This document shows positions 1,249-7,942 of a stretch of 22,695 nucleotides of DNA, one piece after another. Source of the DNA: Thermoproteaceae archaeon. Lineage in GTDB: Archaea > Thermoproteota > Thermoprotei > Thermoproteales > Thermoproteaceae. The stretch covers positions 1-22,695 of the forward strand of contig JAJHRB010000021.1 in the NCBI GenBank assembly GCA_020833025.1, given 5' to 3'. Each line of letters begins with the position of its first letter. Position 1 is the stretch's first letter. Both the position numbers and the translations under genes were made by a program. The notes beneath the pieces were generated by a model. It did not search any database. It saw only the letters and a program-made list of their open reading frames with translations, and was not told where the DNA came from.

Positions 1249-2712
1249 CTAGTAAAATAACGACGGCTCGGGAGTGTAGCCAGCCAGTATCTCGGCAACG
1301 GCGTCCTTAACGCGCCTGGCAATGTCGGGATCCGGCCTGAGTTCCTCGGGCCACTTGCGGCCGCCGTACTCCTCGGGGAGCTTTCTAGTAGCATCAATTC
1401 CGAGCTTCGAACCGTAGCCAGGGACTGGGGAACCTGTGTCGAGGGCGTCAGTGTGAGCCCCGGGAATTATTACAACGTCGCGCTGGGGATCGACGCGCTG
1501 CGCTATTGCAAAGAGCACCTCCCTTACGTCGTGGACGTTGATGTCGTGATCCACTACAATTACAATTTTCGTTAGCGAGAGCATGTGCCCGAGCCCCCAC
1601 AGCGCCATCATCACCTTCTTGCCATGTCCCGGGTACCTCTTCCTTATGGACACTATGGCAATCCCCTGAAAGAGGCCGTGGACAGGCAGGTTAATGTCGA
1701 CCACCTCAGGAATGAGAAATTGCAATACCGGCAGGAACACGCGCTCTACGGCCTTGCCGATGTACGCGTCCTCTAGAGGCGGAGGTCCCACCACCGTGCC
1801 GTAGTATATCGGGTCGCTGCGCCTCATTATGGACTCCGCCCGGAAGACGGGATAGAGACCGCCCGGGTCGTAGACTCCGTAGTGGTCGCCAAAGGGCCCC
1901 TCGCGCCTCAAGTCCTTAACGTCGATGCAGCCCTCTACCACGGCCTCGGCGCGTGCTGGCACGTAGAGGTCGGTCGAGACGCCCCTCATGACCTCAACGC
2001 CCCGGCCCCTCAACACCCCGACGAATAGATACTCGTCCAGCGGGTAGGGCACCGGCATGGCGCCAGCCAGGAGAAAGACGGGATCTCCGCCCAGCACTAT
2101 TGCGGCGTCCACGCACTCGCTGGCACTTGAGAGCAGGTCCGCGGCCCTCTTGTGAATTTGCGCGTGGACTATTGCCTCGCGCTCGCTCAGTATCTGCACT
2201 CTGTAAACTCCGATGTTTGTAATGCCGTGCTGGCCCCTCGTTATCAGCAGGCCGTAGGTTATGTAGCGCCCGGCATCGCCGGGCCAGCTCCTAAACGCCG
2301 GGATCGCGAGAAGGTTGGGCTCTTCGACCACCTCCGCGACGGGCCCCCTCTTCACGACGCGGGGGGCCGCGCGCCCCAATTCCAGTAATTTTACCGCTGC
2401 CTTGATCTTGTCCCACGCCGACAGCGGAGGGGGGCCTGTGAGGAGCTCAAGCGCGCGCCTGCCTGCATCCTCAAGCCTGTCAACCCCAAGCGCCGTCTTT
2501 ATGCGCTCGAGCGAGCCGAAGATATTGCCGACAACCCTCCAGCCTGGAAACCCCCTCACAGACTCGAAGAGCACGGCGGGGCCCCTCGCGTACATTACCT
2601 GTCTGAGAACTTCCGGGATCTCTAGCTCGGGCGACAGCGGCCTTTTGACTCGTCTCAGCCAGCCTCTCTCCTCAAGTGCGGTAATGAATTCGCGGAGGTC
2701 TGAGAATTCCAC
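1249..2712 (-). CDS. ubiD: UbiD-family (prFMN-dependent) decarboxylase, menaquinone/futalosine-pathway MqnL type
   Basis: Motifs EGPFGDHYG, GVYRVQ, QIHKR and GSKLGIDATRK. The start is placed at GTG 2712 (VEFSDLREF), ~21 nt from the TTTTAAA box, rather than at the track's 2766. Confidence 0.9.
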   Translation of the reverse strand: MEFSDLREFITALEERGWLRRVKRPLSPELEIPEVLRQVMYARGPAVLFESVRGFPGWRVVGNIFGSLERIKTALGVDRLEDAGRRALELLTGPPPLSAWDKIKAAVKLLELGRAAPRVVKRGPVAEVVEEPNLLAIPAFRSWPGDAGRYITYGLLITRGQHGITNIGVYRVQILSEREAIVHAQIHKRAADLLSSASECVDAAIVLGGDPVFLLAGAMPVPYPLDEYLFVGVLRGRGVEVMRGVSTDLYVPARAEAVVEGCIDVKDLRREGPFGDHYGVYDPGGLYPVFRAESIMRRSDPIYYGTVVGPPPLEDAYIGKAVERVFLPVLQFLIPEVVDINLPVHGLFQGIAIVSIRKRYPGHGKKVMMALWGLGHMLSLTKIVIVVDHDINVHDVREVLFAIAQRVDPQRDVVIIPGAHTDALDTGSPVPGYGSKLGIDATRKLPEEYGGRKWPEELRPDPDIARRVKDAVAEILAGYTPEPSLFY

Positions 2713-2732
2713 GAGCTGCGTCTCCCGCGCGA

Positions 2733-2739
2733 TTTTAAA
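2733..2739. promoter_or_regulatory. Shared bidirectional TATA box for ubiD and the ABC operon
   Basis: TTTTAAA lies 20 nt from GTG 2712 (-) and 25 nt from ATG 2765 (+), the spacing expected for leaderless crenarchaeal genes. Confidence 0.55.
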
Positions 2740-2764
2740 CTCGGCATAGTTTTTTATTCGGCAC

Positions 2765-3700
2765 ATGCAAAGGCGCGTGACAAGACAGGCGTCCCTCGCC
2801 GCGCTCCTCGTGGCGCTGGCGGCAGTCGCGGCGCTCCTCTACTTGTACCAGCACTTGCACCAGCCCCCTGAGGCCGCGACAGGCACGCCCGCGAGGCTTC
2901 GCGTGGGTCTGCTGCCTGTAATTGACGCGCTTCCGTTTGTTGTAGCTGAGAGCGAGGGGCTCTTCAGCGCAGAGGGCGTCAACGTGGAACTCATTTACTT
3001 CGGCTCCGCGAGGGACAGAGACGCTGCAATAATGACGGGGCAGGTTGATGTCGCTGTGCACGATCCTGTCGGCGCGCTGCTGCTCATCAGCCGCGGGGCT
3101 CCCATTAAGATAGTCGCGTTCGTCTGCTGTCTGCGCGACGAGGACGCAAACGTCGGCTTCTACTACGTGAGGGCGCCGGGCGCGCGAGAGGTGAGGACCG
3201 TCGCGATATCGCGCGGCACGATTATTGAATACGTCGCGTCGAAGTTAGTGGCGGGCAATGTGACATTTGTTGACACGCCCAGCATCTTGAACAGATTCCA
3301 GCTGATGATTGAAGGGAGGGTTGACGCTGCAGTGCTCCCAGATCCCTGGGGGACTCTCGCGCTGGCGAAAAACGCAACGCTCCTGGCGAGGCACAGGGAT
3401 CTCGTCGTGCTAGTCGCCAGGGCTGAGCTGCTTGAGACGCGCGAGGGCCGCCGCGCGCTAGAGAGGCTTGCGAGAGCGCTGAATGAGGCCGTCGACGCGT
3501 ACAGCGCAAATCCCGACAAGTACTGGAGCCTAGTTGCGGAGAGGCTCAACGTGCCGCGAGAATTGAAAGGCGCGTACCGCGCAGTCTGGAGGGCGCGAGT
3601 CGCGGAGGTGCCCAGAGAGCTCTTCGAGAGCGTGGCGGCATGGCTGAGGGAGAGGGGCCTGGTAGAGAGGCAGCTTAAGTATGAGGAGTGCGTTGGATGA
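2765..3700 (+). CDS. ABC transporter substrate-binding protein, NMT1/SsuA (NitT/TauT) type, N-terminal membrane anchor
   Basis: Hydrophobic N-terminus followed by LRVGLLPVIDALPFVVAESEGLF...GVNVEL; adjacent to ATPase and permease genes. Confidence 0.85.
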   Translation: MQRRVTRQASLAALLVALAAVAALLYLYQHLHQPPEAATGTPARLRVGLLPVIDALPFVVAESEGLFSAEGVNVELIYFGSARDRDAAIMTGQVDVAVHDPVGALLLISRGAPIKIVAFVCCLRDEDANVGFYYVRAPGAREVRTVAISRGTIIEYVASKLVAGNVTFVDTPSILNRFQLMIEGRVDAAVLPDPWGTLALAKNATLLARHRDLVVLVARAELLETREGRRALERLARALNEAVDAYSANPDKYWSLVAERLNVPRELKGAYRAVWRARVAEVPRELFESVAAWLRERGLVERQLKYEECVG

Positions 3701-4416
3701 TAGAATTGCGAGACGTCTGGTTTAGGTACAGGGAAGGTCCCTTCGTGCTCCAGAGCTTCACCGCCGCATTTCCCCGCGGGGTGAGCACAATCCTGGGCCC
3801 GAACGGGAGCGGGAAGACCACTCTCCTGAGAGTGATTGCAGGAATCCTAAAGCCGGAGCGTGGCGTCGTCACGATTGACGGGAGGCCTCCAGAGAGACTC
3901 TGGGGGAGGGTGGTATACCTGCCGCAATCGGGCGGGCTGTATCCGTGGATGTCGAACAGGGAAAACATAGCTCTGCCGCTGAAGCTGGCACGCCGCCCCC
4001 GGCGCGAGATTGAAACGGCAGTGGTGAGGGCGGCTAGGGCGCTCGGAGTGGCCCACCTCCTCGACAAGTACCCAAGGGAGGTCTCGGGCGGCGAGCAGCA
4101 GAGAGTCCTCTTGGCGCGGGCGGTGGCGTCTGGCGCGGAGGTCTGGCTTCTCGACGAGCCGCTGTCAATGGTAGACGTGGACCATAGATCCGAGATCGCG
4201 CGTATAATAAGCGATGCCGTGAGGGGTACGGGGAGTTGCGCCATTGTCGTCACGCACAACATAAAGGATGTCGTGGAGCTGGGCGGGCGCGCTTACATCG
4301 CGCGCGGCCCCCCGCTGTCTCTGGTGGCGGAGCTCAGCCCGCACGAGTGCGCAAGCGCCGAGGCTCTTGAGCGCGCCGTGAGGGCGCTGCTAGCCCGCCC
4401 CTTCGCTAGTCGCTGA
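3688..4416 (+). CDS. ABC transporter ATP-binding protein
   Basis: Walker A GPNGSGKT, signature VSGGEQQR, Walker B WLLDEP and H-loop VTHN. Confidence 0.93.
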   Translation: MRWMIELRDVWFRYREGPFVLQSFTAAFPRGVSTILGPNGSGKTTLLRVIAGILKPERGVVTIDGRPPERLWGRVVYLPQSGGLYPWMSNRENIALPLKLARRPRREIETAVVRAARALGVAHLLDKYPREVSGGEQQRVLLARAVASGAEVWLLDEPLSMVDVDHRSEIARIISDAVRGTGSCAIVVTHNIKDVVELGGRAYIARGPPLSLVAELSPHECASAEALERAVRALLARPFASR

Positions 4417-4531
4417 GCGCCAGGGCGAGTAGAGCCGGGTCGGGCCCCCAGCCCCGGGCTGCGGGCGAGGCGGGAGGCTCTGAGGGCGCGGCGAGCCTGA
4501 GCATATAACGCAGCCGGCGCCGGGCGAGTGC

Positions 4532-5260
4532 ATGAGGGCGGCCCTCTACGCCGCGGCGCTCGCCGCCCTCCTCGCTGCATGGCAAGTGACCGCGCTGGCG
4601 GTGGGCAAGCCCTATCTGCCGCCGCCAGCTGAAGTAGCCGCCCAGATGGCCAGTGACTCCTGGCTTCTCGCTTACAATTTGCTCGCCACTTTGAGGAGAG
4701 TTGCAATCTCCGCGCTCATAGCGCTAGTCCTGGGCCTCGCCGCTGGTCTCTCCGCGACGTGGCTCCCAGAGAGGGTGAGCGCAAGCTTCATACGGGCGCT
4801 CGTCCTGCTGACATATCCCATTCCGCACCTGGCGCTAACGCCGATCTTCCTCCACCTCTTCGGAATCGAGGCGAGCAAGATAGCCATTATCTCGCTAATT
4901 GCCCTCTACCCAATAGCGCTCTCAGTTATGGAGTGGGCGCAGAGATTCCCGCGCGACCTAGCCTCCCTGATTTACGTCATGGGAGGGGGGAGGCGCGATG
5001 TCGTGAAATACGTCGTGTTGCCGTCGTCACTTCCCGGCGTGCTCACCGGTGTCAGGATCGCCGTGAGCACTGCGTACTCGGTCTCGTTCATCGCGGAGAG
5101 CCTCGCGGTGACGGACGGGCTGGGCGCGCTCATTTACACCAGCTGGCACAGGCTCGAGTTCGCGCGGATGTACGCGGCAATCGTGACGCTCAGCGCCGCC
5201 GGGCTCGCGAGTTACGCGCTGCTCGCGTGGCTGGAGAGGCGCGCGGTCAAGTGGGCTTGA
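4532..5260 (+). CDS. ABC transporter permease (SsuC/TauC type)
   Basis: Multi-TM protein with LPPPAEV N-terminal motif and EAA-like loop (YVMGGGRRDVVKYVVLPSSLPGVLTGVR). Confidence 0.9.
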   Translation: MRAALYAAALAALLAAWQVTALAVGKPYLPPPAEVAAQMASDSWLLAYNLLATLRRVAISALIALVLGLAAGLSATWLPERVSASFIRALVLLTYPIPHLALTPIFLHLFGIEASKIAIISLIALYPIALSVMEWAQRFPRDLASLIYVMGGGRRDVVKYVVLPSSLPGVLTGVRIAVSTAYSVSFIAESLAVTDGLGALIYTSWHRLEFARMYAAIVTLSAAGLASYALLAWLERRAVKWA

Positions 5261-5291
5261 AGCGCTTTAACTGCAATTCAGAGCCGGTAAC

Positions 5292-6170
5292 GTGCCCTTC
5301 GACCCGGAGGCCGTAGGCATCACGGCATTTAGGCTTATGAGGTTCATAAGAGTGGAGCACACAGTATACACCCTGCCCATGGCCTACGCGGCAGCGCTGC
5401 TTGCAGGCGGCCAGTTTGGCTTGTGGGAGGCAGTGCTGATAGGCCTGGCTGTATTCGGGCTGAGGACTGCCGGCATGTCCTGGAACAACATAGCGGACTA
5501 CCCAATCGACAGGCTGAACCCCCGGACGCAGGGAAGGATGCTCGTGTCGGGAGCCGTGAGCCTCACGGAGGCCTACTGTGTATTCGCGCTCGGCGCCGCG
5601 ACATTCTTAGTCTCCGCGGCCATGCTGGGGCCCTGGCCCGCGGTTCTGGCGCCTCTGTATCTCGCAGTCGTCATAGCATACCCCTACGCAAAGAGAGTAC
5701 ACTGCCTCCCGCACCTCCACCTAGGGGCGGTTTACGCGCTGCTGCCCCTGGGCGCTTCCATAGCGGTTCACGCAAGCGACATCAGCACGGCGCTGGCGCG
5801 CACGCCGTGGCTTCTAGTAACGGCCGCGGCGCTGTGGGTCTCTGGCTTTGATGTGGCTTACTCCAGGGAGGACGCAGAGTTCGACAGGAGGCACGGGCTG
5901 GGAAGCGTTGCTGCGTGCTACGGCACTGCTGCCGCGAATGCTGCTACCGTGGCGCTGCTCACTGCATCTGCCGCGCTCTACCTGGCCAATTACATTGCCT
6001 ACGGTCTCGGCCTCACGGGCCTCATCGTGACAGCCGCGGGGGCCGCCGTTGAGGTCTACTCGGCAGCTGCCGGCGTCAGGGGAAGGTCGGCGCTTTGTAT
6101 GAACTTAAACTTGGCGGTCGGGGTCTTAATCCCCCTCGGCATCTTCACCGGACTTTATGTCAGGCCTTAG
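5292..6170 (+). CDS. ubiA: UbiA-family aromatic prenyltransferase (MqnP/4-hydroxybenzoate polyprenyltransferase-like)
   Basis: EHTVYTLP, first Asp-rich motif NNIADYPIDRLNPRT, second motif FDVAYSREDAEFD; hydrophobic overall. Confidence 0.9.
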   Translation: MPFDPEAVGITAFRLMRFIRVEHTVYTLPMAYAAALLAGGQFGLWEAVLIGLAVFGLRTAGMSWNNIADYPIDRLNPRTQGRMLVSGAVSLTEAYCVFALGAATFLVSAAMLGPWPAVLAPLYLAVVIAYPYAKRVHCLPHLHLGAVYALLPLGASIAVHASDISTALARTPWLLVTAAALWVSGFDVAYSREDAEFDRRHGLGSVAACYGTAAANAATVALLTASAALYLANYIAYGLGLTGLIVTAAGAAVEVYSAAAGVRGRSALCMNLNLAVGVLIPLGIFTGLYVRP

Positions 6171-6926: not shown

Positions 6927-7337
6927 ATGGCGGGGGGCGTGGGGGGTGGGCCAGTCGTCGGTAGGCATATTTACGGCAATCTTTACGGCTGCGATCCCCA
7001 GATACTGAGGGACGAGATAGCGCTTATATCTACCGTGATCGAGGCCGTGAGGGTAGCAAATGCCACGCTGCTGTCAGTCAGCTATTACAAGTTTGGAAAC
7101 GGCGGCGGGCTCTCTGTCTTTGCGCTAATAGCCGAGAGCCACATCTCAGTTCACACGTGGCCCGAGTATTACTTTGCCACAGTCGACGTGTACACGTGCG
7201 GCGCCAGCACGGACCCAAGGGCCGCGTTTGACTACATCGCGTCGAGACTTAAGCCGAGGCGCGTTGAGGTATTTTTCAGCGATAGGTCGCTGCGCTATGA
7301 ATGGCTTAAAAACGAGACGACGCAGACTGTTACGTGA
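6927..7337 (+). CDS. speD: Pyruvoyl-dependent S-adenosylmethionine decarboxylase proenzyme (SpeD/SpeH family)
   Basis: GRHIYGNL, autocleavage site IAE|SHISVHTWPE, and VDVYTCG. The paralogous crenarchaeal arginine decarboxylase cannot be fully excluded without a phylogeny. Confidence 0.82.
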   Translation: MAGGVGGGPVVGRHIYGNLYGCDPQILRDEIALISTVIEAVRVANATLLSVSYYKFGNGGGLSVFALIAESHISVHTWPEYYFATVDVYTCGASTDPRAAFDYIASRLKPRRVEVFFSDRSLRYEWLKNETTQTVT

Positions 7338-7942
7338 CTGTATACTTCAGACAGGCGTACCTCGAAATCGCCAATTTTATCCTGAACTCGTTCAGCAAGA
7401 TAAGCGAGAGTGATGTGGAGAAATTTGTTAGCGCTATAATAGACGCTTACAAGCATAACAACAAGATTCTTGTTGCCGGCGTTGGCAGAAGCGGCCTCGT
7501 GGGCAGGGCGTTCGCCATGCGGCTGCGCCACTTGGGCGTGGAGTCGTACGTGCTCGGCGAGACTATAACGCCATCTGTCAGGCAGGGAGACCTCGTAGTG
7601 GCGATCTCAGGCAGCGGCTCTACACAAATTATTATTACCGTCGCCGAGGCTGCCAAGAGGGCCGGCGCTAAAGTTGCCGCCATCACCTCTTTCTACGACT
7701 CGCCTCTCGGGCGGCTGGCGGATATAGTCTTGCTGGTGCCAGGAAGGACGAAGAGGGCCTCAAGCGACGATTATTTTGCCAGGCAAATCCTAGGAGTTCA
7801 CGAGCCCCTGTCGCCACTCGGAACGCTCTTTGAGGACACGTGCATGGTCGTGCTCGACTCAATTATCGTGGAGATAATGAAGCGGCTGGACAAGAGCGAG
7901 AGGGAAATGTCTGCGATACACGCAAACGTGGAGATATTCTAG
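7334..7942 (+). CDS. hxlB: 6-phospho-3-hexuloisomerase (SIS domain)
   Basis: GVGRSGLVGRAFAMRLRHLG, ISGSGST and PLGTLFEDT; GTGA overlap with the speD stop. Confidence 0.9.
   Translation: MTVYFRQAYLEIANFILNSFSKISESDVEKFVSAIIDAYKHNNKILVAGVGRSGLVGRAFAMRLRHLGVESYVLGETITPSVRQGDLVVAISGSGSTQIIITVAEAAKRAGAKVAAITSFYDSPLGRLADIVLLVPGRTKRASSDDYFARQILGVHEPLSPLGTLFEDTCMVVLDSIIVEIMKRLDKSEREMSAIHANVEIF

Follow-up and report, generated by a model that had tools for sequence, protein, structure and literature searches.

The DNA analysed here (the window) is a whole contig of 22,695 nucleotides (the 22.7-kb contig C2) from a metagenome-assembled genome (MAG) of Pyrobaculum (1.56 Mb in 126 contigs, 94% complete, 62.6% G+C). 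It encodes a predicted ATP-binding cassette (ABC) importer of the NitT/TauT class, which lies head-to-head with the gene for a UbiD-family decarboxylase and is followed by that for a UbiA-family aromatic prenyltransferase. A preliminary description, made from the letters of the window, had suggested that this importer works with UbiD and UbiA and brings in a precursor of an aromatic quinone headgroup. Two lines of evidence from related genomes argue for this suggestion: (i) the importer is recurrently linked to UbiD and UbiA genes, and (ii) the genomes outside Pyrobaculum in which it is linked lack the early genes of the pathway. A functional link between the importer and UbiD/UbiA is well supported by comparative genomics, and from this gene content we predict that the cargo of the pump is a headgroup in the form of a soluble aromatic acid. 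1,4-Dihydroxy-6-naphthoate or a near relative of it would be the likeliest candidate; to this reading we assign a probability of roughly 0.55.

Recurrent linkage of the importer to UbiD and UbiA genes

Close relatives of the substrate-binding protein are few. For a wider survey, one genome of each species was scanned for two peptide motifs, which yielded 259 relatives, 80 loci being kept; members having lost both motifs fall outside the sample. In these loci neighbours were read by tblastn and by clustering of open reading frames (ORFs), the calls of which are crude, and genomes within one lineage are not independent of each other. Binding protein, ATPase and permease stand together in nearly all of the ~120 related loci that are long enough to show it.

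In the deeper Thermoproteota the pump lies beside UbiD in six genomes and 15 hot-spring contigs, all but one of them head-to-head and with UbiA behind UbiD. In MAGs of Sulfolobales and Desulfurococcales (L070-L073), UbiD and UbiA are transcribed one way and binding protein, ATPase and permease the other, so that their head-to-head junction matches that of the window. A further MAG of this group (L075) shares the arrangement, in a locus cut short within the gene of the binding protein. One more MAG of Thermoprotei (L076) has the order UbiD, a TrmB regulator, binding protein, ATPase and permease. Among bacteria, a Chloroflexi MAG (L078) carries TetR, UbiD, UbiA, binding protein, ATPase and permease in a row, Sphaerochaetaceae (L084, L095) carry UbiD, UbiA, UbiX, binding protein, ATPase and permease, and a Treponematales MAG (L101) carries UbiD, UbiA, UbiX and binding protein, with permease and ATPase on the opposite strand. 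The 15 hot-spring contigs counted above show the archaeal head-to-head form, and three other metagenome contigs are linked examples of bacterial type. The comparison of gene neighbourhoods among binding-protein orthologues that the preliminary description had proposed thus reveals linkage to UbiD/UbiA in at least four deep lineages, with differing gene orders.

In a tree of the binding proteins (a quick search, with the Shimodaira-Hasegawa-like approximate likelihood ratio test (SH-aLRT) as its only measure of support), Thermoproteota form one clade (SH-aLRT 100) whose outer branches are all linked, and the protein of the window is sister to unlinked copies from other Pyrobaculum species. Since all outer branches are linked, this sister position suggests that linkage is ancestral in Thermoproteota and was retained here; the simplest reading of the tree is that the ancestral arrangement was kept in this genome and that the pump was relocated in other Pyrobaculum species. 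The UbiD of the window, the sole one in its genome, shares 73-79% identity with other Pyrobaculum copies. Compared with 23 other Thermoproteaceae genomes from the two nearest genera, each with a single UbiD, its identity is 69-79%, and in the third genus it is 59%. UbiD is single-copy in 25 of 28 Thermoproteaceae members, and that of the window is, judged by these comparisons, an ordinary vertical Pyrobaculum orthologue and a single-copy core gene of the family. The UbiA orthologue directly adjoins UbiD in two sister genera, which, together with the vertical descent of UbiD, argues that the cluster is not a transferred island.

Late quinone steps and the cargo of the pump

A co-occurrence check against mqnABCDE had been proposed as well, and the linked genomes outside Pyrobaculum turned out to be without early mqn genes (ten of them for MqnA/MqnD, five for MqnC/MqnE). 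PF02621, the family of MqnA and MqnD, is absent from all ten linked genomes outside Pyrobaculum, every one of which holds UbiX, the positive control for genome recovery. In the five linked genomes searched for them, neither MqnC and MqnE (best score 24 bits) nor MenB and MenD gave a match above cut-off. With 637-655 bits, the UbiDs of the bacterial cassettes exceed the equivalog cut-off for MqnL (495.9). The UbiAs beside them have MqnP as their first or second match, yet remain below the MqnP cut-offs. Among 45 further genomes with the binding-protein subfamily, 38 hold an MqnL-like UbiD (29 above the equivalog cut-off, as opposed to two of 14 control genomes) and only 23 hold PF02621. Judged by gene content, the linked genomes show a pattern of late steps plus importer, as expected of a headgroup salvage system, and the subfamily travels with late futalosine-type enzymes, being clustered with them exactly where the early pathway is missing.

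As MqnC and MqnD are missing from the linked genomes, their pump should carry the very compound on which UbiA/UbiD act, and in the futalosine route this is 1,4-dihydroxy-6-naphthoate (PMC4746308). In the mechanism that we propose, the membrane-anchored binding protein would capture a soluble aromatic carboxylic acid outside the cell and the ABC importer would pump it in; UbiA (MqnP-like) would prenylate the imported acid, and UbiD (MqnL-like) would then decarboxylate it with the help of the prenylated flavin mononucleotide (prFMN) cofactor from a UbiX encoded elsewhere. In Pyrobaculum, import would come on top of de novo synthesis by the futalosine route, and in the present genome it would take the place of that synthesis if MqnC is truly broken there; the other lineages with the cassette would depend on import alone for their headgroup. 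The physiological role of the locus, like its co-transcription, is a prediction.

Several observations weigh against this proposal. In eight of the 17 other Pyrobaculum species the three-gene pump (62-66% identity) has other, likewise conserved neighbours, a thioredoxin-like protein on one side and a protein phosphatase on the other, and in none of the eight does UbiD or UbiA occur within 8 kb of it; ~60 further family members, including those of Negativicutes, Syntrophomonadaceae and Desulfobacterota, are unlinked too. All complete Thermoproteaceae genomes hold two PF02621 genes, and the three Pyrobaculum genomes checked hold both radical-SAM Mqn enzymes (MqnC and a second radical-SAM protein), in either case with or without the pump, so that salvage would not be obligatory in Thermoproteaceae. 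Five genomes with unlinked members that were checked (including Negativicutes, Desulfosarcina and Archaeoglobus) have MqnC/MqnE and at least one gene of the MqnA/MqnD family, and early mqn genes exist elsewhere in the present genome. In organisms with such unlinked members the pump may be an accessory for recapture or opportunistic uptake, or may have another specificity at <=30% identity. MenG/UbiE exceeds its cut-off in only two of the ten linked genomes and is thus mostly missing, so that the end product may not be standard menaquinone. The nearest solved structures, at 13-19% identity, bind taurine, sulfonates, pyrimidines, thiamine or pyrroloquinoline quinone (PQQ). Finally, most of the genomes are MAGs, and those reached via their loci may be incomplete.

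Eight Pyrobaculum species and the majority of bacterial members have the pump unlinked; this, along with family-level matches that are generic only (SsuA_fam at 54.8 bits, NMT1, a TauC/SsuC-like permease), would fit an ordinary NitT/TauT importer of sulfonate, nitrate or pyrimidine type whose position between UbiD and UbiA is functionally meaningless. The preliminary description had itself named absence of linkage elsewhere as an outcome that would speak against it, and the unlinked nearest orthologues, taken alone, suggested chance adjacency; wider sampling reversed this impression. Adjacency to a mostly single-copy gene, expected by chance at ~0.1% per genome, recurs in the four or more deep lineages, with their differing gene orders, on more than 25 independent contigs. 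Moreover, the SsuA_fam score is far below the cut-off of 163.5, the annotated recurrent neighbours include no sulfonate monooxygenase, thiamine or nitrate gene, and in nine bacterial loci there is no thiamine pyrophosphate (TPP) riboswitch ahead of the gene for the binding protein. We consider a merely coincidental position quite improbable.

Some features of the unlinked loci stand apart from this question. Every metagenome contig of Pyrobaculum type (62-70% identity) is unlinked, and in two such hot-spring contigs (L198:1147-1570 and L199:382-844) the N-terminal part of a binding protein is followed almost at once by the C-terminal part of a permease; judged from this junction, these pump copies look like deletion remnants. 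The thioredoxin-like protein beside the pump in other Pyrobaculum species was considered as a VKOR-type quinone enzyme, an identification left unsupported by its weak Thioredoxin_2 Pfam matches, the only ones obtained. In loci of Selenomonadaceae and Sporomusaceae (L080, L093, L096 and similar ones), a DUF3783 protein recurs upstream of or near the binding-protein gene (13 loci), as do, near this gene, two families without Pfam match, of ~271 residues (12 loci) and 343 residues (nine loci). Three Negativicutes in which the subfamily is unlinked, Mitsuokella (L134), Anaerovibrio (L127) and Sporomusa (L097), have one PF02621 gene where two (MqnA and MqnD) are expected, and two or three closely spaced MqnC/MqnE-like radical-SAM genes, which in Mitsuokella and Anaerovibrio form a direct tandem of three; these Negativicutes may use a non-standard futalosine route.

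As to the present genome, the preliminary description had remarked that the window holds no mqnA-E genes, which is true but trivial, since early mqn genes are carried on another contig. Contig C47 carries the second radical-SAM gene and the strong PF02621 gene, both intact. Of MqnC there are fragments only: residues 25-121 at C47:506-877, and, on a second contig (C122:1-3031), residues 57-177 with a frameshift, followed by an insert of ~2.5 kb and then by residues 157-210 at the other end. The two contigs are alternative assembly paths, as C47:521-717 and C122:2835-3031 are 99.5% identical. The assembly contains neither the C-terminal third of MqnC nor the other, weaker PF02621 gene, whose place in the complete relative examined is immediately downstream of MqnC. 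The repeat that apparently interrupts MqnC (~1.6 kb, C122:1028-2634) has copies on contigs C54, C108, C32, C7, C1 and C6 (73-82% DNA identity); its 484-residue ORF (C122:1279-2733) gave no Pfam or NCBIfam match, and it may be an uncharacterised mobile element. That de novo synthesis might be broken in the very Pyrobaculum that retains the ancestral UbiD-importer junction is only a hint, coming as it does from a fragmented MAG.

A different acid might be the cargo of an importer that is nonetheless tied to UbiD/UbiA. The UbiA of the archaeal cassettes is divergent, has no MqnP match and was missed by tblastn with the UbiA of the window, and the archaeal UbiDs, that of the window included, score 404-446 bits, under the MqnL equivalog cut-off (for the window, 446 bits with TIGR03701 against 495.9). 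The UbiA of the window passes TIGR01475 (ubiA_other; cut-off 180.8) and stays below the MqnP models NF041584, NF041585 and NF041586 (104-143 bits against cut-offs of 375-430). Given the divergent archaeal UbiA and the mostly missing MenG/UbiE of the linked genomes, another aromatic acid (for instance 4-hydroxybenzoate or a different hydroxy-aromatic acid) and a non-standard product, such as a prenylated phenolic lipid of benzoquinone or other type, could be imagined, above all in the Sulfolobales and Desulfurococcales lineages. However, the bacterial cassette UbiDs are clear MqnL equivalogs, and both UbiD and UbiA of the window are single-copy orthologues in a family that carries futalosine genes; we regard this alternative as rather unlikely.

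The importer might also serve the decarboxylase in another manner, by supplying a flavin or another precursor of the prFMN cofactor, bicarbonate or a small anion. PqqT (PQQ) and CmpA (bicarbonate) are among the structural neighbours of the binding protein, the NitT/TauT family includes the riboflavin-binding protein RibY, UbiX lies inside the cassette in Spirochaetes, and lumazine synthase was not found in four of the ten linked genomes. It is present in the other six, however, and no flavin mononucleotide (FMN) or TPP riboswitch lies upstream of the binding-protein gene in the nine bacterial loci, the sole TPP riboswitch found (L088) belonging to a different, neighbouring ABC system. These two observations also weaken thiamine, hydroxymethylpyrimidine (HMP) or riboflavin as the cargo. 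Nor would a flavin importer be expected to track UbiD/UbiA specifically, or the loss of MqnA-D, so that a supply of cofactor or anion strikes us as very doubtful. Uptake of a quinone headgroup remains the reading that we prefer.

The importer proteins and the layout of the locus

All five genes that the preliminary description had placed at positions 1249-6170, those for the three importer proteins, UbiD and UbiA, are present there (Table 1), and UbiA is co-oriented with the importer genes as claimed, both lying on the plus strand with the UbiA start 31 nucleotides past the permease stop.

Table 1. Genes and intergenic region of the UbiD-importer-UbiA locus.
Feature	Position	Strand	Basis
UbiD-family decarboxylase, MqnL-like	1249..2712 (longest ORF to 2766)	-	Pfam UbiD_N + UbiD + UbiD_C
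Divergent intergenic region, 52 bp	2713..2764	.	A/T boxes ATTTTAAA, TTTTTTATT; read from sequence
Membrane-anchored substrate-binding protein, NitT/TauT subfamily	2765..3700	+	Pfam NMT1_2, NMT1
ABC ATPase	3688..4416	+	Pfam ABC_tran 94.5 bits
ABC permease, TauC/SsuC/SaoP type	4532..5260	+	Pfam BPD_transp_1
UbiA-family aromatic prenyltransferase, MqnP-like	5292..6170	+	Pfam UbiA 127.9 bits; TIGR01475 198 bits

The binding protein matches NMT1_2 with 49.8 bits (cut-off 24.7), and its AlphaFold2 model (predicted local distance difference test (pLDDT) 90.6) shows an N-terminal helix (residues 2-31) followed by a disordered linker (residues 32-42). Such a membrane helix and linker are as expected of an archaeal extracellular receptor, which argues that the system is an importer. 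The top Foldseek matches are TauA, SsuA, Thi5, ThiY and PqqT (13-19% identity), with TauA and SsuA first at E ~1e-15; a sequence search of the PDB returned weak generic matches only (E 1e-5 or worse), and SsuA_fam (TIGR01728) aligned to the N-terminal third only, with the low score given above. The ATPase translation displays Walker A (GPNGSGKTT), signature (SGGEQQR) and Walker B motifs. The best NCBIfam matches of the permease are SaoP, TauC, NtrB and SsuC, all under their cut-offs, as are all substrate-specific NCBIfam models on the importer. By these family and fold assignments the importer belongs to the NitT/TauT class of binding-protein-dependent ABC importers.

The subfamily has invariant motifs of its own, S-A-x-x-R-D, S-x-N-T-I-I-E-Y and R177, and a longer subfamily motif, F-x-S-A-R-D-R-D-x-A; S81, R85, D86, S149, T152, I153, R177, P194 and A199 are invariant throughout, and the aromatic residues Y156, Y253 and W293 are kept in at least 90% of family members. 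We infer no more from these positions than that R85 and R177, along with the three aromatic residues, could suit an aromatic carboxylate.

MqnA and MqnD share the general type II binding-protein fold class with the binding protein, a likeness on which the preliminary description had drawn. This argument adds nothing: the binding protein has no match to PF02621 (VitK2_biosynth) at E <= 0.001, and there is no MqnA or MqnD among the Foldseek matches listed. Its structural neighbours are transport receptors and Thi5, and a disguised MqnA/MqnD was ruled out on these grounds. As opposed to these PF02621 enzymes, the binding protein is predicted to be membrane-anchored and is translationally coupled to an ABC ATPase, the mark of a transport receptor rather than a pathway enzyme; the last 13 nucleotides of the binding-protein gene are also the first 13 of the ATPase gene. 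The ATPase of the window has a C-terminal extension of ~12 residues, and the gap between ATPase and permease (4417-4531) measures 115 nucleotides, as compared with a 4-nucleotide overlap in other Pyrobaculum loci.

At the divergent junction, the longest ORFs of UbiD and of the binding protein begin in one and the same CATG palindrome (2764-2767), which holds a plus-strand ATG at 2765-2767 and a minus-strand ATG at 2766-2764. In alignments, however, UbiD relatives start with M-F-S-D-L-R, which places the true start of UbiD at the GTG at 2712 rather than at the ATG at 2766; this GTG is the likely start, and the UbiD ATG in the palindrome is probably not used. The box ATTTTAAA (2732-2739) lies 20-27 nucleotides upstream of the UbiD GTG and 26-33 nucleotides upstream of the binding-protein ATG, and another A/T box, TTTTTTATT, is found at 2750-2758. 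In relatives, a TATA-like box stands ~19-29 nucleotides upstream of the UbiD start, and the head-to-head spacers of the other linked archaeal loci are short too (17-116 bp, by crude ORF calls). Given its distances to both start codons, a shared TATA element is geometrically plausible in ATTTTAAA, so that one element common to UbiD and the importer is a plausible arrangement and 2713-2764 a possible shared promoter region.

The remainder of the contig consists of unrelated housekeeping genes. Among them, those for S-adenosylmethionine decarboxylase (6927-7337) and 6-phospho-3-hexuloisomerase (7334-7942) overlap by 4 nucleotides; in L071 and L072, two of the linked loci from archaeal MAGs, the pump is likewise followed within a few kb by S-adenosylmethionine decarboxylase.

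Relation to known systems and biological meaning

Akin to the known NitT/TauT importers (transporter classification (TC) 3.A.1.17: TauABC, SsuABC, ThiXYZ; PqqT), the system described here comprises a binding protein of NMT1/SsuA fold, one ATPase and one permease of TauC/SsuC type. It differs from them in its low identity to solved members (only 13-19%), in its own invariant motifs and in its genomic partners, which are UbiD, UbiA and UbiX rather than sulfonate, thiamine or nitrate genes.

The late enzymes of the futalosine route, MqnP (UbiA family), MqnL (UbiD family) and MqnM (UbiX family), were predicted by Ravcheev and Thiele (2016; PMC4746308), who described no transporter and expected importers of soluble menaquinone precursors that were yet to be annotated; pathways of quinone uptake are likewise still to be identified (PMC10746273). 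The UbiA and UbiD of the window correspond to such enzymes as single-copy orthologues in a family that carries Mqn genes, and the bacterial cassette UbiDs pass the MqnL cut-off; what is new with respect to PMC4746308 is that an importer candidate is physically joined to genes of this kind. A similar logic underlies the menaquinone salvage that depends on 1,4-dihydroxy-2-naphthoate (DHNA), in bacteria whose men genes are reduced to the late ones, MenA and MenG (PMC4746308, PMC5738691, PMC10746273): late prenylation is kept, the early pathway is lost and an exogenous soluble headgroup is needed. That salvage belongs to the classical Men route, with no transporter named in these three papers, whereas the present system lies on the MqnL/MqnP side of the futalosine route, extends to archaea and includes a dedicated ABC importer candidate. 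In the literature searched, no transporter for menaquinone precursors is named, and the statement of the preliminary description that no archaeal transporter of this kind has been characterised holds within that literature.

It has been proposed that microbes pass soluble quinone precursors to one another, and in many genomes only the late quinone steps are left; yet the papers searched identify no importer of such precursors (PMC4746308, PMC10746273). A conserved cassette of UbiD, UbiA, UbiX and importer in genomes without any of the early genes searched for offers a concrete candidate for a precursor importer. We tentatively suggest that the subfamily could be the first uptake system dedicated to a soluble intermediate of the quinone headgroup, be it 1,4-dihydroxy-6-naphthoate or a similar compound, one that would let archaea and bacteria having only UbiA, UbiD and UbiX build their quinone from a cross-fed ring, although here the doubts are slightly the stronger. 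If true, headgroup auxotrophy and cross-feeding would extend to the futalosine branch and to hyperthermophilic archaea, the organisms concerned being Sulfolobales/Desulfurococcales-type archaea and some Pyrobaculum, as well as Chloroflexi and Spirochaetes among the bacteria. This would improve the metabolic reconstruction of uncultured lineages and might point to a growth factor for their cultivation.

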